Assembly (NCBI GenBank): GCA_047639355.1
Contig: JBLIOC010000002.1
Span: 1 to 61,107, forward strand
DNA: 61,107 nt
From: Minisyncoccia bacterium
GTDB lineage: Bacteria > Patescibacteriota > Minisyncoccia > Phycocordibacterales > UBA918
Direction of reading: 5' to 3'
The stretch's first letter is position 1. The number at the start of each line of letters is the position of its first letter. Below are positions 30 to 49,386 of this stretch, in pieces. Both the position numbers and the translations under genes were made by a program. Under the pieces are notes generated by a model. It was not told where the DNA came from and did not search any database. It saw only the letters and a program-made list of their open reading frames with translations.

Positions 30-138
30 GGTCCACGAGGACTCGAAAAGCTTTTGAGTCAGATTGTGAGCGAAGCAAAACAATCTGTCCAAAAGGTATA
101 CTGGTCATGTAATGACCGAGATTCCTCGTGGACCCGCA
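30..138 (+). ncRNA. tRNA-minihelix-like structured repeat unit (copy A1)
   Basis: A 12-bp closing helix ggtccacgagga/tcctcgtggacc plus a cgca tail mimics an acceptor+T-stem. Inside are a GAAAAG junction, helix cttttg/caaaag capped by hairpin cagattgt-GAGCGAAGCAAA-acaatctg, a GTATACTG junction, and hairpin ggtca-TGTAA-tgacc. Confidence 0.6.
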
Positions 139-182: not shown

Positions 183-288
183 GGTCCACGTGGACTCGAA
201 AAGCTTTTGAGGTAGATTTGACTGAAAGGAGAATATATCCAAAAGGTATACTGGTCATGTAATGACCGAGATTCCTCATGGACCCACA
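183..288 (+). ncRNA. tRNA-minihelix-like structured repeat unit (copy A2)
   Basis: Same flanks as A1 (ggtccacgtgga/tcctcatggacc). The central hairpin is replaced by tagattt-GACTGAAAGGA-gaatata. The TATACTG junction and UGUAA hairpin are the same. Confidence 0.6.
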
Positions 289-332
289 AAATTCGGAAGA
301 ATAAAACGGAGTTTTTAATGACATAATTTTCA

Positions 333-439
333 GGTCCACGTGGACTCGAAAAGGTTGCCAGATATTTTGTGACGCAGGAGCAAAATATCTGGCAACCTAT
401 ACTGGTCATGTAATGACCGAGACTCCTCGTGGACCCGCA
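333..439 (+). ncRNA. tRNA-minihelix-like structured repeat unit (copy A3)
   Basis: Same closing helix as A1/A2. The central helix is ggttgccagatattttg-TGACGCAGGAG-caaaatatctggcaacc, followed by the CTATACTG junction, the ggtca-TGTAA-tgacc hairpin and the 3' end gactcctcgtggacccgca. Confidence 0.6.
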
Positions 440-443
440 TGTA

Positions 444-477
444 GAAAATAGCTGCATTTGCAAGCTATTTTCTTTTT
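444..477 (+). terminator. Intrinsic-terminator-like hairpin closing the A1-A3 array
   Basis: Hairpin gaaaatagct...agctattttc followed by a T-run. Confidence 0.5.
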
Positions 478-596
478 CCCGAAGATATATTTCAGAACTT
501 TCACTTGCATTCATACTCAGCGTTGTGCATAATATAAACATCACGACGAAAAGGGGCCCAAACGGAGAAATACCGCAAGGCCCCCTTTTCTTTTCT

Positions 597-1130
597 CTAC
601 CTCTTTATTTTCTTGAGTGTCCCTGGATTTGAAAGATCTGCAAAATACTTACGGGTGATGACTTTATACAAAGAAGACGCGTAGCGTTGCTTTGGAAACA
701 GTATTTTTTCAAACTTATTTTCCTCAATCAAGAAATCTACCAACATTCGATAGTCACCATCACCAGAGACCAGTACGACCTTATCAAAATCTTCTTGCTT
801 ATACACACGTTTCATTATCGAGAAGATGATATCTGAGTCAACATTTCCTTTTTTAGTTCCTTTCACAGCAGCATTATGCTTACGGAACACTAGAATGAAA
901 CCTGCAGATTGAACAGCTTCGTAAAGCGTCTGGTATTGCTGCTCATCTTGCACGTAACCATGATAATAATATGCTTTCTTCACGCCATATCGTTCTGCAA
1001 GAAATACACGGAACTTTTGTAAATCTACGTACCACTCAGGGTCACGCTTTGTTGTACCCAAATGAAGGTTCCGACCGTCTATATAACAAATGTTGTTTCC
1101 TGTACTTTTCATATTTATCCATGGCACCAA
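597..1130 (-). CDS. NYN-domain (LabA/DUF88-like) putative RNase
   Basis: The 177-aa ORF has the motifs ICYIDGRNL, GNVDSDI and VLVSGDGDY, typical of NYN/LabA-like PIN-fold proteins. An alternative start is Met7 at 1112. Confidence 0.7.
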   Translation of the reverse strand: MVPWINMKSTGNNICYIDGRNLHLGTTKRDPEWYVDLQKFRVFLAERYGVKKAYYYHGYVQDEQQYQTLYEAVQSAGFILVFRKHNAAVKGTKKGNVDSDIIFSIMKRVYKQEDFDKVVLVSGDGDYRMLVDFLIEENKFEKILFPKQRYASSLYKVITRKYFADLSNPGTLKKIKR

Positions 1131-1226
1131 ACTTTGAAGAGCTTCAATACTACTCCTGATACACTCCCTCTCCCTATAAAGTTCTGAAAGCCAGGTTTTT
1201 TGCCTACCCTATAACCCTAAAGGATT

Positions 1227-1622
1227 TTAACTATTAGAGCAATTTATTACCGTATACCAAAGTCTGCCATCTATCATTCCGTCTTCAAGGACTGCTTGCA
1301 TAACCGTATCAACCAACAACCAGGCAGATAGAACAATCACCAATCCGATTAATGCATTCATTATCTTACTCTTAGCTGCACTTTTGGCTGCTGGATTTCC
1401 TCCAGAGGTTGCAAGCCCGAAACCTGCTATCGCTACAATTATCGAAAATACCACCAACAAAACTCCAATTAACCACGTTACTATAGTGTTTCCCATAGCC
1501 ATGAGGGCACAAAGGTCGCAAGGGTTCGTTGTCGTCCCGTCGCAAGCGACAAGCGGGGCGGCCGAAGCTACGCTTGGCATGATTATTAAAATAATCAGAG
1601 CTATTAGTGGTAAATATTTCAT
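1227..1622 (-). CDS. Small secreted two-TM protein, VirB2/TrbC-like 'pilin' of the CPR type
   Basis: 131 aa with a signal peptide (ASAAP) and two hydrophobic helices separated by the charged loop GGNPAAKSAAKSK. The architecture matches the 14.5-17.1 kb paralogues. Confidence 0.5.
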   Translation of the reverse strand: MKYLPLIALIILIIMPSVASAAPLVACDGTTTNPCDLCALMAMGNTIVTWLIGVLLVVFSIIVAIAGFGLATSGGNPAAKSAAKSKIMNALIGLVIVLSAWLLVDTVMQAVLEDGMIDGRLWYTVINCSNS

Positions 1623-1715
1623 ATTGAAATAATAGCACAGTGGTACTATGAATAATGTCTAATATGTGATATTTTGTTCCCATCTGCAACAATGCAGTGT
1701 TACAAACAAATATTC

Positions 1716-1798
1716 GCGTCGGTGGCAGAGTGGTCAATTGCAGGAGACTGTAAATCTCCCGGATTTATCCTACGCAGGTTCAAATCCTGCTCGGCGCA
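1716..1798 (+). tRNA. tRNA-Tyr (GTA), long variable arm, no encoded CCA
   Basis: Hand fold gives acceptor gcgtcgg/tcggcgc, anticodon stem ggaga/tctcc with loop ctGTAaa, and T-arm gcagg-ttcaaat-cctgc. Confidence 0.9.
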
Positions 1799-1833
1799 CA
1801 TTTTTAAGCACCCTTTGGGTGCTTTTAATATGA

Positions 1834-1962
1834 GCGCCGAGAGAAAGCTCTGGGAGAGCTTTCGTCAGGATTTGAAAAGCTTTTGAGGTAGATTTGACTA
1901 AAAGGAGAATATATCCAAAAGGTATACTGGTTGTGTAACAACCAAAATTCCTGCTCGGCACA
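1834..1962 (+). ncRNA. tRNA-like structured repeat unit Y1 (mimics the tRNA-Tyr 3' end)
   Basis: Helices gcgccgag/ctcggcac, hairpin gaaagctc-tggga-gagctttc, and helix caggattt/aaattcctg. The core (cttttg..GACTAAAAGGA..caaaag, GTATACTG, ggttg-TGTAA-caacc) is nearly identical to A2. The unit is followed by the terminator hairpin aaacggc-tta-gccgttttttt. Confidence 0.6.
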
Positions 1963-1992
1963 CAAATTTAAAACGGCTTAGCCGTTTTTTTT

Positions 1993-2193
1993 GCGCCGAG
2001 AGAGTGACTCAATGTCACTCACGTCAGGATTTGAAGAGGTTGCCAGACTATTTTCGACCGAAGGGAGAAAATATCGACTGTCAATTGAGTGAGTGAAATA
2101 GAAATTTATTTATATTTCCGAACGAAAGCAGACAGAAAGCTTTGCTTACAACCTGTACCGAAACTGTAAGTTTCAAAATTCCTACTTGGCGCA
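1993..2193 (+). ncRNA. tRNA-like structured repeat unit Y2 (expanded copy)
   Basis: Contains gcgccgaga..., hairpin gagtgac-tcaat-gtcactc, and helix caggattt/aaaattcct. Helix ggttg.../...caacc encloses tattttc-GACCGAAGGGA-gaaaata plus extra hairpins. It continues with GTACCG, gaaac-TGTAA-gtttc, and the 3' end cctacttggcgcaca. Confidence 0.5.
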
Positions 2194-2259
2194 CAAAGAA
2201 TAATAAATGTCTATACCTGCACTTCAAAATTAGAAGTGTTTACTGTATAGTAGTCAATT

Positions 2260-2891
2260 ATGAAATCAGTTGGTCCAATTCCACTAAGTAAGAGAACGAT
2301 GGATATCGTAATCAGCTTAATCATACTCACCATATCCCTCCCTTTTACACTTTCAGTGTTACTGCTTATTAAAATTACGCAGATCTTTAGCTTGCGTCCT
2401 TTTGATCCATTGTTCTTCATGGACGAAAGATATTCTCACGGTAAGCTAATCTCACTGTATAAATTTAATATTTTTAAATACGACCTAATTTTAGAGGCTA
2501 GAGCAAGAGGTGAATTATTCAAACTAAAAAATTTGAAAAAAATGGTGGCGTCACTTGGATAGGATGGATTCTTAAACAGATATACATGGACGAATTGCCA
2601 CAATTATACAATGTTCTCATAGGAGAAATGAGTTTAGTAGGACCTAGACCAGTAAACAAAGAAGTTTTTAACGAGATGATGGCAGCTGGCATTGACCACA
2701 AAGCAAAAGTCAGAGCTGGTATGACAGGCAGCTACCAATCATACAAACGAGTTGCCGGAAAAAATGCCAATGAACTTGACCGTGAATATATAGAGCATTA
2801 TCTAAACAAACCCTGGTATACACTTTTATGGTTTGATATCAAGATTATTTTGAGAACCTTAAAAGTTATAGTCAAAGCGGAAGGTGTATAA
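2260..2891 (+). pseudogene. Bacterial sugar transferase (WbaP/undecaprenyl-phosphate hexose-1-P transferase family) split by a frameshift
   Basis: ORF 2260-2562 carries the N-terminal TM and PFDPLFF..YKF. The frame open from 2514 reads ..KNGGVTWIGWILKQIYMDELPQLYNVLIGEMSLVGPRP, the family signature. The frames switch at the A7 run 2536-2542. Confidence 0.75.
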
Positions 2892-2940
2892 ATTTGTCTT
2901 TGCCTAGATAACGCTAAATCCTTCTGACATACTTATAAGT

Positions 2941-2987
2941 ACTGCTTAATAAAAAACCGCAGAGTGGCGGTTTTTTATTAAGCAGTA
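2941..2987. terminator. 20-bp perfect hairpin, bidirectional terminator between the sugar transferase and clpB
   Basis: actgcttaataaaaaaccgc - agagtg - gcggttttttattaagcagt. Confidence 0.7.
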
Positions 2988-5701
2988 ACAGCCTGCTTTT
3001 TCTTTGCTGTTGGTTTAGCAACTGTTTTAGCGGGCGTCTTACGGCGGCCTTTCTTCTTTATGTCGAAGTTGAGTTCTCCTTTTTTCATAGTCACCTTAAC
3101 GGTTCCACCTTGAAGCATTCCTTCACCCACCATCATATTGGCTATCGGTGTCAGAATCTTACTCTGAATTAGGCGTCGTAGTGGTCGAGCGCCGAATTTT
3201 GGATCATAACCTTCTTTAGCAAGATAGTCACGTGCATCTTTTGCAATAGTCAGAGCTATTTCCTTCTTTTTAAGACGAGCAACAACGTCATCTACCTGTA
3301 AATCAACAATCTGTGTAATCGCTTCTGGTGTAAGCAGGTCAAAAGTAATAATTTCATCAAGTCGATTGAGAAACTCTGGTCGGAAATACTGCTTCAAACT
3401 TTCAATCACCTTATCTTTGGCTTGTGTATATTGAGCGTTGTGTCCATGATCTACGGTAAAGCCAAAATTTGACATGCGGTCGATATGTTCGGCTCCAATG
3501 TTCGAAGTCATAATAATAACTGTATTTTTGAAGTTCACTTTCCGACCCTTAGCGTCAGTCAGATGACCAGAGTCGAGTACCTGCAAAAGAATATTGAATA
3601 CTTCTGGATGTGCTTTCTCCACCTCATCAAGCAAAATGACAGCGTAAGGTCGGTGACGGACTCGTTCAGTAATAGAACCTCCCTCGTCGTGACCAACGTA
3701 CCCTGGCGGTGAACCAATGATTTTTGAAACTGAGTGTTTTTCCATGTACTCAGACATATCGATTCGCAAAAGTGCATCAGGATCACTAAACATGAATTCT
3801 GACAACGCCTTTGAAAGTTCCGTTTTCCCAACTCCAGTTGGCCCTAAGAAAAGGAATGAACCAATCGGACGGTTCGGGTCAGCAATTCCTGCTCTAGCAC
3901 GTTTAATAGCGTCAGCTACCAACTTCACAGCATTATTCTGACCAATAACCTTCTCATGCAACACATCATCAATTCGTGCCAACTTCTGAACCTCAGCCTC
4001 GAGCATGCGTGAGACAGGAATACCGGTCCACCTAGATACGACCATAGCAATGTCTTCTTCGGTCACCTCTTCTTTTATTAGACGACGGGTACGTTGAAGT
4101 TTCTTAAGTCGCTTCAATTTAACATCAAGTTCTTTTTGCATTGAAGGCACCGTATCGTAACGAATTTCAGCAGCGCGAGTTAGGTCAGCAGCTGCTTCTG
4201 CATTGTCTGCCTCGACTCGTAGCTCATCAAGACTTTTCTTTATCTTACTGATTTCCCCAAGAGCTTTTTTCTCGTTATTCCATTTAGTTTCGAGATTTGA
4301 AGTAGTTTCCTTATATTCTCCGATTTCTTTCTCGATTTCTTTTATGCGGCCTTTAACTTTCTTTTTATTAGTAGTAGTTTCAACTTCTTTACGGAGGGCT
4401 TCGCGTTCTATTTCTAATCGGCGAATCAGACGGTCGGTTTCTACTAATTCTTCTGGTTTGTTCTCAAGTGAAATACGCATTGCGGCCGCTGCCTCGTCGA
4501 TGAGGTCCACAGCCTTGTCCGGCAAGAACCGGTCGGTAATGTAACGGGAAGAAAGATTTACTGCAGACACTAAAGCGTCGTCAGTAATCCTCACCCCGTG
4601 ATAAAGTTCATACTTTTCAGCTAGTCCTCGCAGAATCGCCACCGCGTCCTCGATATTTGGTTCATTTACAAAAACTGGTTGAAAGCGACGCGTAAGCGCT
4701 GGATCACGTTCTATATGCTTTTGGTACTCTTTTAGAGTGGTAGCGCCAATAACACGAATTTCGCCACGGGCGAGAGCGGGCTTCAACATGTTTGAAGCGT
4801 CCATTGACCCATCGGCCTGACCAGCTCCGACGATGGTGTGGAGCTCATCAATAAACAGGATGATTTGTCCATTAGCACTTTCGACTTCCTTCATAACAGA
4901 CTTAAGTCGTTCTTCAAATTCACCGCGGAACTTAGTACCAGCCACTAGTAAACCTAAGTCGAGTGAAAGGATTTCTTTTCCCTTAACTGATTCTGGCACC
5001 TGACCAAGTGCAATTTGCTGGGCCAGTCCCTCGGCAATTGCTGTCTTTCCTACTCCTGCTTCTCCGATAAGAACCGGATTATTCTTTGTGCGACGAGAAA
5101 GTATCTGTATGACTCGCTGGATTTCAATATCACGTCCTATAACTGGGTCAACTTTATTTTCCTGGGCGAGCTTGGTGAGATTGCGAGTGTACTTGGCAAG
5201 CGTTCGATACTTTTTGGGTGATTGCGCATCACTAACATTACTTTCACGTAATTCCGTAATCGCTTCCCTTACCCTTTTCTTATCAACGCTGGTTTGCTGC
5301 ATAATATCGATAGCGGGACCAGGATGCTCAAGAGCTGACACAAAAAGATGCTCTACTCCTACGTACGAATCACCTAACTCTTCGGCGAAGGTGCCAGAAA
5401 ACTCCAAAGCCTTGGCTAGCTCGGGGGTTAGATAGAGTTGGTAGGATTGCGAAATAGTTGTCTGTACCTCAGGTGTTTCTAGTCCTTCAAGAAGTAAATC
5501 GGTAAACGCAATCACATCGATATCGAGTTTATCAAGAATGGCTATTACAGCACTCTCGTCTTGCATAGCAAGAGCAGTCAAGAGATGAACTGAGCTGACA
5601 TGGTTTTGACCTCGTTCGATAGCTAGCTCATGAGCTTTTCTGATTGCTTCCTTGGCTTTGGTTGTAAAATTGTGAAAATTCGGCATATTCTTTATATTCA
5701 T
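2978..5701 (-). CDS. clpB: ATP-dependent chaperone ClpB (two AAA+ modules, coiled-coil middle domain) with a Lys-rich C-terminal tail
   Basis: 907 aa. It has a Clp_N-type N-terminus, Walker A motifs GEAGVGKT and GPTGVGKT, a long coiled-coil insert, and GARPLRR near the C-terminus. Confidence 0.95.
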
Positions 5702-9659: not shown

Positions 9660-9769
9660 TCATGTCAAAGTGTTAAAAAGGCAGTGGTCAATTCGGATCG
9701 CTGCCCTTTTACAAACAAAAGTTTTGAATAGCCGCCAGAATAATGCTACAGTACTGCGTACGAAACAAA

Positions 9770-9842
9770 GTCCTGGTGGCGAAGTGGTTAACGCATCGGT
9801 TTGCAAAACCGACACGCGTGGGTTCGAATCCCACCCAGGACT
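9770..9842 (+). tRNA. tRNA-Cys (GCA)
   Basis: Acceptor gtcctgg/ccaggac, anticodon loop ttGCAaa, T-arm gtggg-ttcgaat-cccac. Confidence 0.9.
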
Positions 9843-9871
9843 CACTTGCAAAAAGCAAGCGAATTTCACTC

Positions 9872-9957
9872 GCCCGGGTGGTGGAATCGGTAGACACGAG
9901 GGACTTAAAATCCCTTGCTATTCAAATGGCGTGCGGGTTCAATTCCCGCCCCGGGCA
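9872..9957 (+). tRNA. tRNA-Leu (TAA), long variable arm
   Basis: Acceptor gcccggg/cccgggc, anticodon stem aggga/tccct with loop ctTAAaa, T-arm gcggg-ttcaatt-cccgc. Confidence 0.9.
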
Positions 9958-9978
9958 CTACTATGCTAGACTTTTCTT

Positions 9979-10179
9979 ATGAAAATCCTTAAAGGTAATT
10001 TCGAAATACTTCTGTTGGCAATTGGCATTGTTTTTATATGGCGTGCTATATGGGGACTGTCAGACCTATATCTCTTTCCAGATAATCCAGAGTTGAGCTA
10101 TATTGTTTCAGCTTCTATGGGAATTATTATCTTGCTACTGACTGGAAAAAAGCCTAAGTCAATCGAGGAGCTGCTCTGA
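9979..10179 (+). CDS. Small two-TM membrane protein, hypothetical
   Basis: 66 aa with two hydrophobic segments. There is no recognisable family. Confidence 0.35.
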   Translation: MKILKGNFEILLLAIGIVFIWRAIWGLSDLYLFPDNPELSYIVSASMGIIILLLTGKKPKSIEELL

Positions 10180-10265
10180 CACAGATTGGTATTTTAACTA
10201 AAGTTTATTCTTGTGTAATTACTTGTTTTGTCCAAAAAATTATTGTACACTCTCGCAACACGCAT

Positions 10266-10338
10266 GCGCCCTTAGCTCAGTTGGTAGAGCAGCTCCCTCT
10301 TAAGGAGACGGTCCAAGGTTCGAGCCCTTGAGGGCGCA
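10266..10338 (+). tRNA. tRNA-Lys (CTT)
   Basis: Acceptor gcgccct/agggcgc, D-arm gctcagttggtagagc, anticodon loop ctCTTaa, T-arm caagg-ttcgagc-ccttg. Confidence 0.9.
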
Positions 10339-10382
10339 CACAGGTAAAACAAAACACTATTCATTTGAATAGTGTTTTGTTT

Positions 10383-10487
10383 TAGAAACTGAACTTCTTC
10401 AGTTTCGTGCCTGTGTGCGAGACGGAAGCATATATTTTGCTCGTTCGTAGAGCAAAATACAGCTGAGTCGGGGTCGAGAACACTTAG
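10383..10487 (+). repeat. B-type structured repeat, copy B1 ('empty site' version)
   Basis: tagaaa + hairpin ctgaa-cttc-ttcag + tttcgtgcctgtgtgcgagacgga + hairpin (atattttgctc/gagcaaaatac) + gagtcgggg|tcgagaacacttag. It is collinear with 11214-11409 except for a roughly 90-nt block. Confidence 0.5.
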
Positions 10488-10508
10488 TAGAATTTGCACG
10501 TAGTGCGA

Positions 10509-10535
10509 AATTATACTTAGTGATTCGTGACCACA
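10509..10535 (+). repeat. 27-nt direct repeat (left copy) flanking unit K
   Basis: aattatacttagtgattcgtgaccaca, repeated at 10654-10680 with 1 mismatch. Confidence 0.8.
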
Positions 10536-10540
10536 TTATC

Positions 10541-10647
10541 GGTATACATAATCAAGAGAGCCCGATTGAGACAGATTCGACCAGCAGGAGAATCTGTCCA
10601 ATTGGGATACTGGTCTCGTAGAGACAGAGACCCCTTGAGCCCTCACA
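10541..10647 (+). ncRNA. Structured repeat unit K (3' end resembles the tRNA-Lys 3' end)
   Basis: Helix ccgattg/caattgg capped by acagattc-GACCAGCAGGA-gaatctgt, then the GATACTG junction and hairpin gtctc-GTA-gagac. The 3' end gagaccccttgagccctcaca compares with tRNA-Lys gagcccttgagggcgcaca. The 5' boundary is uncertain. Confidence 0.45.
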
Positions 10648-10653
10648 ACGAGT

Positions 10654-10680
10654 AATTATACTTAGTGATTCGTGGCCACA
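10654..10680 (+). repeat. 27-nt direct repeat (right copy)
   Basis: aattatacttagtgattcgtggccaca. Confidence 0.8.
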
Positions 10681-10745
10681 AAATACAACCCAACACCCTT
10701 CCTAGCCCTCTACAAAAAATTCTGCTATACTCTGCCGGCAACCCT

Positions 10746-10827
10746 GCGCGGGTGGCGAAATTGGTAGACGCGCTAGTTTTAGGCACTAGTGGAGCAATCC
10801 ATGGAGGTTCAAGTCCTCTCCCGCGCA
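10746..10827 (+). tRNA. tRNA-Leu (TAG), long variable arm
   Basis: Acceptor gcgcggg/cccgcgc, anticodon stem ctagt/actag with loop ttTAGgc, T-arm ggagg-ttcaagt-cctct. Confidence 0.9.
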
Positions 10828-10859
10828 CAAAGAAAACTGCCCTTGTGGCAGTTTTTGTT

Positions 10860-10990
10860 TGCTCGGGAAGTAAAGTCTGGGAGACTTTACGTGAGGACTT
10901 GAAAAGGTTGCCAGCAACTTTGTGAGCGAAGCGATACAAAGTGGCGACAACCTGTACTGAATCTGTAAGATTCAAGTCCTCTCCCGCGCA
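10860..10990 (+). ncRNA. tRNA-like structured repeat unit L1 (carries an exact 26-nt copy of the tRNA-Leu(TAG) 3' end)
   Basis: Hairpin taaagtct-ggga-gacttta, and helix gaggacttgaa/ttcaagtcctc. Helix ggttgcc../..ggcgacaacc is capped by aactttgt-GAGCGAAGCGAT-acaaagt, followed by CTGTACTG and gaatc-TGTAA-gattc. The 3' ttcaagtcctctcccgcgcacaaaga is identical to 10808-10833. Confidence 0.65.
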
Positions 10991-10995
10991 CAAAG

Positions 10996-11070
10996 AGCGA
11001 GGCACGCAATCAACCGAACGTCTCAAATACCAGTAAATGAGCCGTTCGGTGGATTGCGTGCCTCGCTTTT
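10996..11070. other. 25-bp near-perfect inverted repeat (long hairpin with a T-run)
   Basis: agcgaggcacgcaatcaaccgaacg - 22-nt loop - cgttcggtggattgcgtgcctcgct tttt. Confidence 0.7.
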
Positions 11071-11213
11071 CTCTTTTAGAGAAAACCGTGTATCACACAG
11101 GCGTGCGTAGCACGCTACTCGTTTAATTTTTGCTGGAAAAAAGTTCGCGCAAATGCTAGAATTACTACCAAAGGTAAACAAAAAACCAGTCACAAAGTGA
11201 CTGGTTTTTTGTT

Positions 11214-11409
11214 TAGAAAGCAAACCGCTTTGCTTTCGTACCTATGTGCGAGACGGAGACATGTTTTTCTCCCCTTTTCTTGGGAGAAAAACAGTCGAGC
11301 CGGGTGAAAAAGTCTGAGAGACTTTTGCAAGACCTTGCCAGTCATTTTGGAGTCTGCAAACAGAATGGCGACGAGGTGTACAGAATTCGTAGAATTCGAG
11401 AACACTTAG
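11214..11409 (+). ncRNA. B-type repeat, copy B2, carrying an A/L-type core ('filled site' version)
   Basis: The backbone matches B1. It has an extra block at about 11306-11395: aaaagtct-gaga-gactttt, ccttgccagtcattttg-GGAGTCTGCAAA-cagaatggcgacgagg, GTGTACAG, gaattc-GTA-gaattc. The block is homologous to the L1 core. Confidence 0.55.
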
Positions 11410-12446
11410 CTTAAGTGTACCCTCGTCTTGGCAAAAGGCTGTCGCTTACGAACGTAAAGATTGTAATAACGCGCTATCACCTTCTTTGAACGTTGAGGAA
11501 GCTTATCTACCTGGGCACAACCCCATGAACAGTAGCCATTTCGTTTCTCTATACAATCACCACAACCGATGAAAAGGGTGTGGCAAATTTGGTTCTTGCA
11601 GTGGTAATGAGTATCGCTTTTTTCTCTTTTGCACAAATGACAAGTAGAAATAATTTCATCGCTGATACGTTCACCTAACCGTTCGTCAAATACAAAGTTT
11701 TTGCCCTTGAACTTATTTGGTAACCCTTGCTGATCTACCTGACGAGCATAGTCAATAATACCGCCCCTTAGGTGTCGCACGTCTTTAAAACCATTATGCT
11801 TTAGCCATGCGCTTGCTTTCTCGCACCTAATCCCACCTGTACAGTACATAGCGACCTTTTTGTCTTTATGCTCTTTAAGAAGTTCCGGAGTTTTCTTAAG
11901 CTCCTCACGAAACGTCACCACGTTAGGAGTGACAGCACCTTCAAAATGACCAACCTCAGCTTCGTAATAATTTCGCATATCTACAACAACAGCGTCCGGA
12001 TCGTCAACATAGGCATTCATTTCCTCAGCTGTAAGATACTGGCCGGTTTCGGTTACATCAAACGAAGAATCTTCTAGCCCATCGGCTACGATTTTTTCCT
12101 TAACTTTTACCGTGAGTTTAAAAAATGACGGTAACTCCCCTTCTTCAACTGCAATTTTATACGGGATTCTTTGCAGTTCAGGCTGTATTTGTATCCAAGC
12201 GTCATATTGGTCCCAATATACCTTTGGGACGTTCATTTGGGCGTTAATGCCCTCGTGAGCTACATATATTCGGCCCAGACAATCAAGGTCAGACCATTTT
12301 GCCAAGATACGACTACGGAACTCTTCTGGGTCAGCGATTTTTACATAACGATAAAATGACAAAGTGACACGAGGACGCATATCTGCGGCGGCCGCCTGGC
12401 GCTTTTCGGCACGACTTCTAAGGTCACGAGTTTCGCTGGTTTTCAT
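11406..12446 (-). CDS. trhO: Rhodanese-domain tRNA uridine(34) hydroxylase-like protein (TrhO/YceA, UPF0176)
   Basis: 346 aa with the rhodanese active-site loop YCTGGIRCEKA and the Cys-rich C-terminal tail typical of this family. Confidence 0.8.
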   Translation of the reverse strand: MKTSETRDLRSRAEKRQAAAADMRPRVTLSFYRYVKIADPEEFRSRILAKWSDLDCLGRIYVAHEGINAQMNVPKVYWDQYDAWIQIQPELQRIPYKIAVEEGELPSFFKLTVKVKEKIVADGLEDSSFDVTETGQYLTAEEMNAYVDDPDAVVVDMRNYYEAEVGHFEGAVTPNVVTFREELKKTPELLKEHKDKKVAMYCTGGIRCEKASAWLKHNGFKDVRHLRGGIIDYARQVDQQGLPNKFKGKNFVFDERLGERISDEIISTCHLCKREKSDTHYHCKNQICHTLFIGCGDCIEKRNGYCSWGCAQVDKLPQRSKKVIARYYNLYVRKRQPFAKTRVHLS

Positions 12447-15061: not shown

Positions 15062-15457
15062 TTATGATGGGGTGGTGATGGTAATTCCACGAGGAATACT
15101 AACTGTATCTTCGTCAAGCCCTGTACTAGAGGTCAATAGGTTAACAATTCCCCAGAATACGATAATGAGTACGAAACCGAGAGTTGCGTAAATCATCAAA
15201 CTCTTTCCTTGTTCTTTGGCTTCTTCGTTAGCTCCACCAGCAATGAAGAACCTGAACATTCCCCAGACAAATACCAAGAAACCAATACCAATGATGAACG
15301 GAATGAGGACATCGTTAGCAAAAATGAGGATGTTCGTGAGAAGTGTTCCAAACGGATTTTCAGAACCTACGGGAAGTACGCTGTGAGTAGAGGCTGAAGC
15401 AAGCATAGGCAAAGCCATCATGCTACCTGCTCCTAATATATACCTAATCTTTTTCAT
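15062..15457 (-). CDS. VirB2/TrbC-like pilin-type small membrane protein (tandem paralogue 1)
   Basis: Start MKKIRYILGAG. The core LIPFIIGIGFLVFVWGMFRFFIAGGANEEAKEQGKSLMIYATLGFVLIIVFWGIVNLL is identical to the neighbouring gene. Confidence 0.55.
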   Translation of the reverse strand: MKKIRYILGAGSMMALPMLASASTHSVLPVGSENPFGTLLTNILIFANDVLIPFIIGIGFLVFVWGMFRFFIAGGANEEAKEQGKSLMIYATLGFVLIIVFWGIVNLLTSSTGLDEDTVSIPRGITITTPS

Positions 15458-15493
15458 GAGTATAACTTTGTTAATTATTAAGACTATTATCAA

Positions 15494-15868
15494 CTAAGGA
15501 ACTGTTACTGTTGGAGTTTCAAAGTCGACATTACCGTTTTCAAGCCCTGTACTAGAGGTCAATAGGTTAATAATTCCCCAGAAGACGATAATGAGTACGA
15601 AACCGAGAGTTGCGTAAATCATTAAACTCTTTCCTTGTTCTTTGGCTTCTTCGTTAGCTCCACCAGCAATGAAGAACCTGAACATTCCCCAGACAAATAC
15701 CAAGAAACCAATACCAATGATGAACGGAATAAGGACATTGTTTGCAAACGTTAAAATCTCGCCAAGCAGAGTTCCCAAACGGCCGCCTGTAGCTTCAAAG
15801 GCGGCAGAAGCAGATAACGGAAGAGCTAGCAAGCTGACGCTGGTTATTACATGGCTAATTTTTTTCAT
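15494..15868 (-). CDS. VirB2/TrbC-like pilin-type small membrane protein (tandem paralogue 2)
   Basis: Start MKKISHVITS. It has the same core as 15062-15457, with divergent N- and C-termini. Confidence 0.55.
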   Translation of the reverse strand: MKKISHVITSVSLLALPLSASAAFEATGGRLGTLLGEILTFANNVLIPFIIGIGFLVFVWGMFRFFIAGGANEEAKEQGKSLMIYATLGFVLIIVFWGIINLLTSSTGLENGNVDFETPTVTVP

Positions 15869-16153
15869 ATGAAATTTATGTAAATCGGATAACATTAAAA
15901 CGATATTCTTATTATAAGGTATACCATACAGTAAACAAGCGAGTTATTCACTTATTCGCACGCCTACAAAGGCAGTTCAAAATTATATTCTACACGGTTT
16001 GTTTTCCTAGACCTATACTCGACATAACTATTCAACTAAAACAAATCAAGAAAAATAATTGCGAAAAACTAGTTCCGTAAAGGCTCTTATTAAAGATGCC
16101 GAACAAACTTATATTCAAACACACTAGTATTAAATTGAGTATTCACAGTTAAC

Positions 16154-33047: not shown

Positions 33048-33119
33048 GGTCCCATCGTCTAATGGTTAGGACGCTAGGTTTTCATCCTAGAAATCGGAGT
33101 TCGATTCTCCGTGGGATCA
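33048..33119 (+). tRNA. tRNA-Glu (TTC)
   Basis: Acceptor ggtccca/tgggatc, anticodon stem ctagg/cctag with loop ttTTCat, T-arm cggag-ttcgatt-ctccg. Confidence 0.9.
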
Positions 33120-33230
33120 CAAATTTTTTAAGCTAAATTTTAGGCCACTTTTTTGCATACCACTAAAGTTGTTCCAAATTTCTTAGAGATTAGTTTTGAT
33201 GTTATTTCTTAATGATATATAATTATCTAT

Positions 33231-36194: not shown

Positions 36195-36203
36195 CTTGAG
36201 TAC

Positions 36204-36236
36204 CTTGGGTTCGAACGTCCTCTACCCAGCGGAGCA
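36204..36236 (+). repeat. Isolated tRNA-3'-end-like fragment
   Basis: cttgg-gttcgaacgtcctcta-cccag-cggagca. The acceptor-like end cggagca is the same as in unit 36281-36410. A similar fragment is at 41490-41524. It is followed by terminator hairpin 36242-36274. Confidence 0.4.
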
Positions 36237-36280
36237 TCCAACAGAAAAACACTCCCAAAGGAGTGTTTTTCTGTTGTCGA

Positions 36281-36410
36281 TGCTCCGAGCAGAAAGTGGA
36301 GCTTTCGGGCAGGGTTCGAAGAGATGGAGTTTATCGCACGAGCGTTAGTGAAGTACGATACGACATCTTTACCGTTCCTGTATGGAAAGAAATTCCTGCC
36401 GCCGGAGCAA
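36281..36410 (+). ncRNA. tRNA-like structured repeat unit (divergent copy)
   Basis: Perfect 7-bp acceptor-like helix tgctccg/cggagca, hairpin gaaag-tggag-ctttc, T-stem-like ggcagg/cctgcc enclosing gttcgaag + helix agatg/catct + ttcc-TGTAT-ggaa. Confidence 0.5.
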
Positions 36411-48926: not shown

Positions 48927-49038
48927 TTTGTGATAAAATCTTTTAGATTTAACTTCAAACACTTCCAGTTAATTGTTAGAAACTCGTCCAATCCCCGGAG
49001 CAATCAGAAAAAACCCTTATTATAAGGGTTTTTCTTTG

Positions 49039-49175
49039 CGAGAGGAAGCGGATAAAGGTGTATAGATACCTTTAGTCAGGACTCGAAAAGCTTTTGAGGT
49101 AGTTTCGACCACAGTGAGAATAAATCCAAAAGGTATACTGCTTGTGTAACAAGAGAAATTCCTGCCGCCGGAACA
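49039..49175 (+). ncRNA. tRNA-like structured repeat unit (copy at 49 kb)
   Basis: Hairpin aaaggt-gtatagat-accttt, and helix caggactc/gaaattcctg. The core cttttgag..GACCACAGTGA..tccaaaag, GTATACTG, cttg-TGTAA-caag is nearly identical to Y1/A2. The 3' end cctgccgccggaaca matches 36395-36409. Confidence 0.55.
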
Positions 49176-49386
49176 AAACTACACAACATAAATTACAAAA
49201 ATAACGGTCGTATCCATATTACGGAGGACCGGGCTCCATAATACGTGTACTTCGTTAAAGGGTACTGTTCACACTGGAGTTTTATGATCAGTTTCGCTGT
49301 TGTATGAGTCTTTTAATTTACAGTCAATTTTGATGAAACATTTTGGAAGTTTCGTGCTTTAGGTTCGAACCTGATATAATTATTTT

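Follow-up and report, generated by a model that had tools for sequence, protein, structure and literature searches.

Folded units behind tRNA genes of Patescibacteria place a conserved core within helices that match the 3' end of the neighbouring tRNA

Introduction

Several small RNAs imitate one half of a tRNA. mascRNA (from MALAT1), menRNA (from NEAT1), the Arabidopsis GUT15 tRNA-like RNA and the gammaherpesvirus tRNA-like RNAs carry a mimic of the acceptor/T-arm, and their ends are set by RNase P, RNase Z and the CCA-adding enzyme. At the DNA level, the account of Williams (2002, Nucleic Acids Res) reportedly gives direct repeats of the tRNA 3' part, starting from the T-loop, as the classic hallmark of integrase attachment (att) sites. 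The retroviral primer-binding site and the cDNAs of Neurospora retroplasmids contain a complement or copy of the last ~18-20 nt of a tRNA, up to the T-loop and including the post-transcriptional CCA. Here we analyse a stretch of 61,107 nt from a Minisyncoccia bacterium (assembly GCA_047639355.1, contig JBLIOC010000002.1, positions 1 to 61,107 of the forward strand; hereafter the window), in which a tRNA-Tyr gene is followed by two folded units, Y1 and Y2. Their outer helices match the 3' end of this tRNA, and their interior is shared with units placed elsewhere. They belong to a large, apparently undescribed family found in Patescibacteria, also named Candidate Phyla Radiation (CPR) bacteria. 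To our knowledge, no RNA family or mobile element sets a constant core in helices rewritten to match the neighbouring tRNA, and it is on this ground that we judge the family new. A limited literature search found no description of the units, and a prior description is possible; it listed papers on tRNA-like small RNAs (PMC8457004, PMC9777231, PMC6152437).

Results

Two units behind tRNA-Tyr rebuild its 3' end

The tRNA-Tyr gene (anticodon GTA) occupies positions 1716..1799 of the + strand and was recognised by ARAGORN and by the Rfam model RF00005 (55 bits). Its 3' end reads ...ggttcaaatcctgctcggcgcA(1798)ca, the discriminator A1798 being followed by CA instead of CCA. This gene is the source of the 3' end copied in Y1 and Y2. 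All the unit parts described below lie on the same strand, and bit scores refer to R1, a covariance model of the units run on the window and on other loci. Unit Y1 (1834..1964; 101.5 bits, E = 2.6e-26) opens with the acceptor-like 5' strand gcgccgag (1834-1841), followed by a hairpin that we call P2 (gaaagctc-tggga-gagctttc, 1843-1863) and by the T-like 5' strand caggattt (1866-1873). Then come the junction strand GAAAAG (1874-1879), helix P3 (1878-1923), the strand AUAC (1924-1927), helix P4 with its GUA triloop (1928-1944) and the tail aaaattcctgctcggcacaca (1944-1964), a copy of tRNA-Tyr positions ~55-73 plus CA. Unit Y2 (1993..2195; 71.2 bits, E = 6.3e-18) repeats this order with the 5' strand gcgccgag (1993-2000), P2 (gagtgac-tcaat-gtcactc, 2003-2021), the T-like strand caggattt (2025-2032), GAAGAG (2033-2038), a P3 with extra branches compared to other units (~2037-2154), GUAC (2155-2158), P4 (2160-2174) and the tail aaaattcctacttggcgcaca (2175-2195).

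The original prediction, made from the letters of the window, had described both unit ends as near copies of the tRNA end. Of the last 17 nt of tRNA-Tyr, 15 were matched by the tail of Y1 and 14 by that of Y2, when unrelated tRNAs averaged ~9-10 matches. The complementary strands that it had placed at the beginning of each unit are present as well, in the form of an inverted copy of the tRNA 3' part, and P2, the single hairpin that it saw replacing the D and anticodon arms, lies precisely at the boundary between acceptor and T-stem. Minimum-free-energy folding of Y1 and Y2 produced the arrangement proposed, with an acceptor-like closing helix, a hairpin, a T-like helix and a three-way junction (z = -5.26 for Y1 and -4.18 for Y2; no equally stable fold among 200 shuffles). 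A terminator-like hairpin was also observed behind both the tRNA and Y1, as had been noted. That behind the tRNA (agcaccc-ttt-gggtgct, 1807..1827 on the + strand: hairpin 1807-1823 plus T run) was seen by eye and in the fold and is absent from the terminator scan list; that behind Y1 (aaaacggc-tta-gccgtttt, 1970..1992, likewise on the + strand: hairpin 1970-1988 plus T run) is listed by the scan on the - strand, with 8 pairs of which 4 are G-C, and its T run abuts the 5' strand of Y2.

The interior of Y1 was found again at other places of the window. Its P3 is 98% identical to that of a unit named A2 and 87% identical to that of the copy at 49 kb (U49), and the closing helices differ, which agrees with the combination of a shared core and distinct ends that had been claimed for these three copies. 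The segment shared by Y1 and A2 goes no further than the conserved junction strands; their P4 helices are distinct, and so are the closing ones.

Unit ends follow the neighbouring tRNA in other genomes

A tRNA-adjacent set was composed of 80 units having a tRNA gene of the same strand that ends less than 250 nt upstream, in loci that hold 169 tRNA genes in 0.89 Mb. The distance from tRNA to unit was narrowly distributed (median 130 nt, interquartile range 118-137; n=80), and every unit with a nearby tRNA was co-oriented with that tRNA. In the closing helix, the 3' strand reproduces a segment of the neighbouring tRNA that starts in the T-loop and runs through the discriminator, and it adds trailer nucleotides. 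The 3' strand of the T-stem was copied at 5 of 5 positions in 70 of the 80 units, against 4.9% of controls, and at least 14 of the last 17 tRNA nucleotides were matched in 47 of the 80, against 0.16% of control pairs. The copied tRNAs represent 16 amino-acid types. Unit ends follow the adjacent tRNA in related genomes for these 16 types, which was the check that could have overturned the original prediction, and the association of a common core with locus-specific tRNA-matching helices, first proposed for this window, extends to about 150 units of other genomes. The proposal that every unit builds its own acceptor-like and T-like helices held for the T-like part; the acceptor strand with its discriminator was copied (at least 7 of 8 nt) in only 45 of the 80 tRNA-adjacent units (56%), or 41 of the 70 with an exact T-stem, and this part is kept far less well than the T-like stem.

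Counted back from the discriminator, ungapped identity between tail and tRNA extended over 16-17 nt (to tRNA position 57-58) in 30 of 48 units and over 22-23 nt in 3 of 48. When a conserved 2-nt AY insertion was allowed, identity reached T55-C56; the minority with 22-23 nt is devoid of this insertion. In the forward direction, identity continued for 1-6 nucleotides of the trailer, with one case of 20 nt. The copied tRNA segment returns as its reverse complement in the 5' strand, which often spans discriminator and trailer too; the inverted orientation is unambiguous at the non-palindromic T-loops of tRNA-Tyr and tRNA-Leu. A copy of the 5' acceptor/T-arm half of the tRNA had been considered for this strand and was discarded, as the sequence is the reverse complement of the 3' part instead. 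An inverted copy of acceptor, discriminator and trailer was found downstream of 41 of 95 unit-bearing tRNAs, 9 of 94 other tRNAs and 0-2 upstream controls, so that a general feature of tRNA terminators was mostly rejected, the more as several of the 9 carry divergent units.

Tails ending in N-CCA were present in 11 of 48 units, and in 9 of these the adjacent tRNA gene has no CCA. The tRNA genes of the window and of the CPR loci almost never encode CCA; their discriminator is followed nearly always by C, and usually by CA. We considered that CCA tails might be displaced native tRNA ends and rejected this, since unit-free tRNA genes at the same loci are without CCA too.

Two loci with tRNA-Tyr deserve separate mention. 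At locus L132 (Ga0136601_1000745), the unit has the T-like stem gagga/tcctc where its own tRNA has acaag/cttgt. This stem pairs with the unit's own 5' strand and equals the tRNA-Tyr T-stem of other CPR lineages, while the acceptor part matches the local tRNA; the mismatch suggests replacement of the tRNA or import of the unit. At locus L193 (Ga0256843_1011157), the tRNA is followed on its 3' side by a palindrome of ~30 bp per arm, gggcgcacaaaatg...cattttgtgcgccc, with a terminator-like loop and no unit core. It includes the acceptor 3' strand plus the trailer.

A covarying three-way junction in the place of the T-loop

The consensus runs, from the 5' side, through the 5' strand, the optional P2, the T-like stem, GAARAG, P3, GURUACYG, P4 and GARA(AY)UCC with the tail. 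P2 has loops of the CUGC, UGGGA or UAAAU type. P3 is long and variable and falls into several subtypes, each conserved across phyla, and P4 counts 5-7 bp closed by an invariant GUA triloop. The core common to all units is the three-way junction made by GAARAG, P3, GURUACYG and P4. Alignments and the structure model place it in the position of the T-loop, in accordance with the original prediction: the T-loop nucleotides are paired with the 5' strand, and P3 and P4 take the place of the loop.

Covariation was scored on 149 distinct sequences in an alignment fitted to the model, which favours the structure. In this set, the two P2 values for paired cells were 95% and 91%, that for the T-like stem was 95% and that for P4 97.7%, 34 of 35 pairs changed on both sides, and the covariation score was 0.579, versus 0.165 after shuffling (reached in 0 of 500) and at most 0.133 with slid partners. 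Independent MAFFT alignments recovered the same helices. The acceptor pairs were left out of the covariance model; with a flexible register, at least 6 of 7 of them could form in 43 of 143 units. P2, where present, splits the inverted copy, and always at the point facing the 65/66 boundary of the tRNA. In Y1, Y2 and the unit L1 behind tRNA-Leu, the closing helix thus consists of 7 + 5 bp divided by P2 at 65/66, and in A1-A3 of exactly 12 continuous bp.

Other interpretations of the core were examined and discarded. The P4 loop might have mimicked the tRNA-Tyr anticodon loop (U-GUA-A); the would-be positions 32/38 and 33/37 show the covariation of base pairs (U-A to C-G), hence the loop is a GUA triloop. 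A UAC/GUA pseudoknot is ruled out by geometry, the linker nucleotides being missing. The catalytic core of the hammerhead ribozyme is CUGAUGA ... GAAA ... UH. By eye, the junction strands GAARAG / GURUACYG fit neither this nor other ribozyme cores, twister-sister being the other self-cleaving ribozyme with a three-way junction that was considered, and no Rfam ribozyme was hit in the window at gathering score or in region 1-2400 at E <= 10.

Traces of evolution at the RNA and DNA level

The junction nucleotides and the subtype-specific loops are conserved across phyla. In relatives whose neighbouring protein is 79-89% identical, the orthologous Trp units show compensatory changes in P4 and mirror a T-loop change of their tRNA on both strands. 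Outside the base of P3, G.U pairs were counted 90 times and A.C mismatches 42 times. Between units with different tails, P3 identity above 85% occurred in 4.9% of same-genome pairs and in 0.5% of different-genome pairs. In one such pair of Ser and Leu units (locus L091), the P3 are 87% identical and their differences are compensatory. This sharing indicates that cores, or at least P3, move between tRNA loci of a genome and that closing helices stay locus-specific. Among ~110 loci, with 470 open reading frames (ORFs) clustered, no integrase, transposase, reverse transcriptase or RNA-binding protein was enriched within 1.5 kb of units, the families recovered being housekeeping ones.

The family is spread over the Patescibacteria

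A degenerate pattern of the core was scanned in contigs of one genome per species and in viral contigs. It was found at 119 genome loci at least, and among the matches listed ~110 carry a validated unit. R1 detected 151 units in 99 sources among the loci listed. Nearly all are Patescibacteria/CPR contigs, from Saccharibacteria, Paceibacteria/Parcubacteria, Kaiser-, Yonath-, Lloyd-, Taylor-, Nomura- and Zambryskibacteria, Minisyncoccia and unclassified metagenome-assembled genomes (MAGs). Three loci come from MAGs labelled otherwise, of a single binning project. The window itself bears CPR hallmarks, a type IV secretion system pilin of family PF18895 and a short IF-2. Units mostly measure ~105-140 nt, the ~205 nt of Y2 being due to its enlarged P3, and they may form tandem arrays of up to 4-5. 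In viral contigs, the pattern had 7 matches, all of them chance occurrences in coding-like sequence without the hairpin or GAARAG, and there is therefore no sign of a phage origin.

Existing models did not report the units. Rfam 15 at gathering score gave only 6 tRNAs over the whole window, and relaxed searches (E <= 10 in 1-2400, E <= 5 in 9700-11500) added merely sub-threshold hairpin-like hits. In region 1-2400, ARAGORN and the Rfam tRNA model called the true tRNA-Tyr only, leaving Y1, Y2 and A1-A3 uncalled.

Other units and tRNA genes of the window

R1 found ten units in the 61 kb, every one on the + strand, eight of them with E-values from 1e-26 to 1e-16. A 17-nt word of the core occurs 6 times against 0.15 expected, and the repetition of the core in the window is not chance; a repeat finder placed copies at ~74-139, 224-289, 375-440, 1900-1965, 10583-10648 and 49111-49176. 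The first three units are of Trp type: A1 (30..138, 81.9 bits), A2 (183..288, model hit 157-288, 74.8 bits) and A3 (333..439, 67.8 bits), with a terminator hairpin behind A3 (443-474). The closing helix of A1 is ggtccacgagga/tcctcgtggacc, of tRNA-Trp type and without P2. These units belong to a tandem array whose tRNA-Trp sits just upstream of the window start, as learnt from L127, a contig of the same population that is 100% identical over window positions 300-3777 and reaches past the window start, where it carries the tRNA-Trp and two further units. The array counts four units in L127 and five in the window. A copy-number polymorphism was not retained, since L127 shows 100% identity elsewhere and the assembly may have collapsed. 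The array has no terminators between units, and a -10-like hexamer lies 5-7 nt upstream of each, a hint at separate promoters that is only suggestive.

Unit L1 (10861..10992, 84.8 bits, repeat family D7) follows a tRNA-Leu(TAG) gene and has a tail matching 17 of 17 nt; its end (10968-10996, 29 nt) is 97% identical to the 3' end plus trailer of this tRNA (10805-10833). Behind the tail stands a very long hairpin, gagcgaggcacgcaatc...gattgcgtgcctcgc with a T run (10996-11078), which far exceeds the other terminator-like structures. Two solo units with Asn-type tails were also found, U36 (36283..36409, 69.7 bits, tail ...cctgccgccggagca, no adjacent tRNA gene) and U49 (49044..49175, 97.1 bits), the P3 of U49 being 87-89% identical to those of Y1 and A2. 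Each is preceded by a tRNA-3'-end-like fragment and a terminator (~36200-36275 and ~48975-49035). The fragments, …gggttcgaacgtcctctacccagcggagca (36200-36240) and …cgtccaatccccggagca (48975-49000), have no tRNA 5' part and may be remnants of a lost tRNA-Asn gene.

The last two units, in the tRNA-Lys/Leu region, are divergent. K1 (10543..10647, 23.6 bits, E = 1e-4) has a T-stem copy of tRNA-Lys type and a degenerate acceptor part. It is flanked by a direct repeat of 26 nt (10509-10534 / 10654-10679, 1 mismatch, 0 expected by chance) which equals the 3' end of an element of another kind, called K-type and not a tRNA, and looks like a target-site duplication of that element. L2 (11299..11411, 26.1 bits, E = 2e-5) has P2, P3 and P4 and no tRNA-like tail; it interrupts a second K-type copy at a point where the first copy runs directly from gccgggt into gagaacacttag.

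The K-type element is itself a second structured element trailing tRNAs, present in the window at 10375-10536 and 11206-11425 and also at loci L130, L133 and L137; in relatives it trails tRNA-Trp or tRNA-Tyr. It consists of a P2-like hairpin, an inverted tRNA 3' end with trailer, agacgga, a hairpin and gagtcggggtcgagaacacttagtag...aattatacttagtgattcgtgaccac. Its cctgtgtgcg is the reverse complement of cgcacacagg in tRNA-Lys, and a stretch of 63 nt is repeated among these elements (repeat family D10). Rfam gave no hit to them in region 9700-11500 at E <= 5.

The tRNA genes of the window lie at 1716-1799, 9770-9843, 9872-9958, 10266-10339, 10746-10828 (Leu TAG) and 33048-33120, all on the + strand. 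The cumulative GC skew is lowest near 27-28 kb, suggestive of an origin or terminus of replication; the six tRNA genes and the ten units stay on the + strand on either side of it. Directly downstream of Y2, a sugar transferase domain (PF02397) is split over the adjacent ORFs 2260-2562 and 2586-2891, which cover profile positions 1-57 and 88-178. L127 carries the identical sequence, and the split is a frameshift, a pseudogene or a sequencing error. Finally, two copies of 239 nt (15114-15352 / 15540-15778, 92% identical, 426 nt apart) lie within the adjacent minus-strand ORFs 15062-15493 and 15494-15895 and look like a tandem gene duplication.

Discussion

The reading that we favour, with a probability of about one half, is that the units encode a small RNA whose copies are seeded by duplication of a tRNA end, whose acceptor/T-arm mimic would let tRNA enzymes define its ends, and whose P3 and P4 would carry some activity. 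Seeding, or re-seeding, at a locus would duplicate the last ~20-25 nt of the tRNA in the DNA, much as att sites or target-site duplications arise, and would write the segment from T-loop to trailer in both direct and inverted orientation, thereby creating the closing stem. Later selection would keep the T-like stem, P2, P3 and P4 paired, the outer acceptor-like helix often decaying. The RNA of the unit would arise from read-through of the tRNA or from its own promoter, and its base would imitate an acceptor/T-arm minihelix. RNase P, the 3'-end enzymes (RNase Z or exonucleases) and the CCA-adding enzyme would then probably trim it into a stable tRNA-like small RNA. An RNA read in the direction of the tRNA is favoured by the common orientation of units and tRNAs, the junction nucleotides and loops conserved across phyla, the compensatory changes of the orthologous Trp units, the self-pairing stem at L132, the excess of G.U over A.C outside the P3 base and the N-CCA tails, which also hint indirectly at processing. 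The folds far more stable than shuffles and the lack of enriched mobility genes nearby agree with the reading as a whole.

Several observations weigh against this reading. The outer part is truncated, deleted or unrelated in 25 of the 70 units with an exact T-stem, and mimicry of a minihelix is consequently not essential to every member. The acceptor-like helix was paired at 54% in a fixed register; with a flexible one, the best pairing reached 4.87 of 7 against 4.09 +/- 0.08 for shuffled partners, a modest gain. RNase P and RNase Z normally make contact with a T-loop or elbow, and the units have neither. Over all unit helices, G.U pairs (112) are about as frequent as A.C (100), when the tRNA stems of the same loci gave 120 versus 8. 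At mismatches between tail and tRNA, the better partner of the 5' strand was the tRNA in 9 cases and the unit's own tail in 1. Most units are separated from their tRNA by a terminator-like hairpin that leaves no room for a promoter. Lastly, the 26-nt duplication around K1 points to insertion of DNA, and the co-duplication of gene trailer nucleotides in some units points to a DNA-level component.

Part of these observations would be expected of a selfish, non-autonomous miniature element which inserts at the 3' end of tRNA or small RNA genes and duplicates ~20-26 nt of its target, its hairpins serving propagation by a trans-acting enzyme through a single-stranded DNA or RNA intermediate, without any cellular RNA function. 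We regard such an element, the main rival, as rather unlikely, in spite of much that it would account for: the high copy number (at least 10 units in 61 kb), the tandem arrays of up to 4-5 units, the tRNA-end-like fragments flanking solo copies, the direct repeats of the upstream gene's 3' end on either side of the insert, including the non-tRNA repeat of 26 nt at K1, and the trailer nucleotides duplicated with them. Near-identical P3 at different tRNA loci is ten times commoner within than between genomes, the helices are almost purely Watson-Crick, some tail mutations are uncompensated and the outer helix decays. However, no transposase, integrase or reverse transcriptase was enriched near the units, and the terminal inverted repeats vary with every target, unlike those of miniature inverted-repeat transposable elements (MITEs). 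Moreover, P3/P2 subtypes and junction nucleotides are conserved over distant CPR phyla and orthologues evolve by compensation, which suggests long-term selection, and the split by P2, always at tRNA 65/66, is a structural rather than a mutational feature. The small-RNA reading and the selfish element are compatible, in the form of a mobile small-RNA gene.

The better fit of the 5' strand to the tRNA than to its own tail (9 of 10 informative cases) would also be explained by a cis-acting 3' module, in which this strand pairs with the upstream tRNA, over its 3' half and trailer, and extends the terminator hairpin, the tail competing for the same strand, so as to tune termination, read-through or 3'-end maturation of that tRNA. 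The fixed position on the same strand, ~130 nt behind the tRNA, agrees with this, as does the fact that the 5' strand is often a perfect complement of tRNA end and trailer, centred on the terminator loop; the tRNA-Tyr of L193 even has such a palindrome without the core. Such a module is nevertheless improbable, as it leaves unexplained the conservation of the P3/P4 core, the tandem arrays and the intact solo units U36 and U49 far from a tRNA; at L132 the T-like stem departs from that of the local tRNA and yet pairs with the 5' strand of the unit, and about half of the tRNA genes in the loci have no unit. That the units might be decayed duplicates of tRNA genes, or attR scars of larger integrative elements once present in these genes, is hardly credible and already largely refuted by the present results. 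Identity running back 16-17 nt, to tRNA 57-58, in most units recalls such scars, but only one conserved, covarying element of ~110 nt lies between the repeats, alike at 16 tRNA types and across phyla, with no integrase nearby. As for duplicates, the 5' strand is the inverted 3' end, not a tRNA 5' half (Y1 has caggatttgaa, not gcaggttcaaa), and neither ARAGORN nor the Rfam tRNA model calls the units.

We tentatively consider it possible that the units are retargetable small RNA genes. A process able to read out the 3' terminus of a target and to write it into the new copy in both orientations would repeatedly re-install the core behind different genes for tRNAs or other small RNAs. This process could be tRNA-primed or tRNA-templated copying, or RNA-guided recombination. 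If so, the 5' strand would be a programmable guide, or an analogue of a primer-binding site, for tRNA 3' ends, and the finished RNA would be a mimic of tRNA ends that enters the tRNA maturation or tRNA-targeting pathways of CPR bacteria. A constant core in helices rewritten for each tRNA implies either a new exploitation of tRNA-end recognition (by RNase P, RNase Z, the CCA-adding enzyme, or toxins and repair enzymes for which tRNA ends are the signal) or an unprecedented way of copying that is aimed at tRNA 3' ends. The genomes of CPR bacteria are tiny, yet at least 10 elements occur in one window of 61 kb, and units stand behind about half of the sampled tRNA genes (95 of 189). That a folded element so abundant and spanning the phylum is absent from Rfam reveals a gap in the annotation and assembly of CPR genomes.

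Compared with the retroviral primer-binding site and retroplasmid cDNAs, the units likewise have 9 tails that read CCA where the gene lacks it. They differ in having no reverse transcriptase nearby, in the division of the complement by P2, and in that several copies include gene trailer nucleotides absent from mature tRNA. With the REP/BIME, ERIC, Correia and RPE elements and MITEs, they share a short, multi-copy, hairpin-forming, intergenic, sometimes tandem and assembly-breaking nature; whereas the termini of all these elements are constant family-wide, those of the units change with the tRNA (Trp, Tyr, Leu, Asn ...), the interior being conserved and the orientation always that of the tRNA. 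YrlA Y RNA and the tRNA-like domain of transfer-messenger RNA (tmRNA) also join an acceptor/T-arm mimic to another module, and YrlA genes can be tandem. These mimics keep the T-loop and match no neighbouring tRNA, and the units depart from them in both respects; ARAGORN found no tmRNA, Rfam gave no hits to either RNA, and neither rsr nor smpB is among the annotated neighbours.

The closest counterparts are found at two levels. The att duplications of tyrosine-integrase islands and prophages share with the units a direct repeat from T-loop to 3' end that flanks an insert and leaves the tRNA intact. The insert of the units differs, being ~110-140 nt long and gene-free, with an inverted copy and a folded core, and it occurs at 16 tRNA types with no integrase nearby. 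RNAs of the mascRNA type, like the units, mimic the acceptor (7 bp) and T-stem (5 bp) with the discriminator, which holds for ~56% of tRNA-adjacent units (45/80), and some unit tails also encode CCA. They keep a cloverleaf and T-loop, whereas the units put a large three-way junction there, and they copy no neighbouring tRNA, whereas the helix sequence of a unit is that of the adjacent tRNA gene; the processing of the units is a proposal. By analogy, the units would work most like RNAs of the mascRNA type, and their anatomy in DNA resembles the att duplications at tRNA genes.

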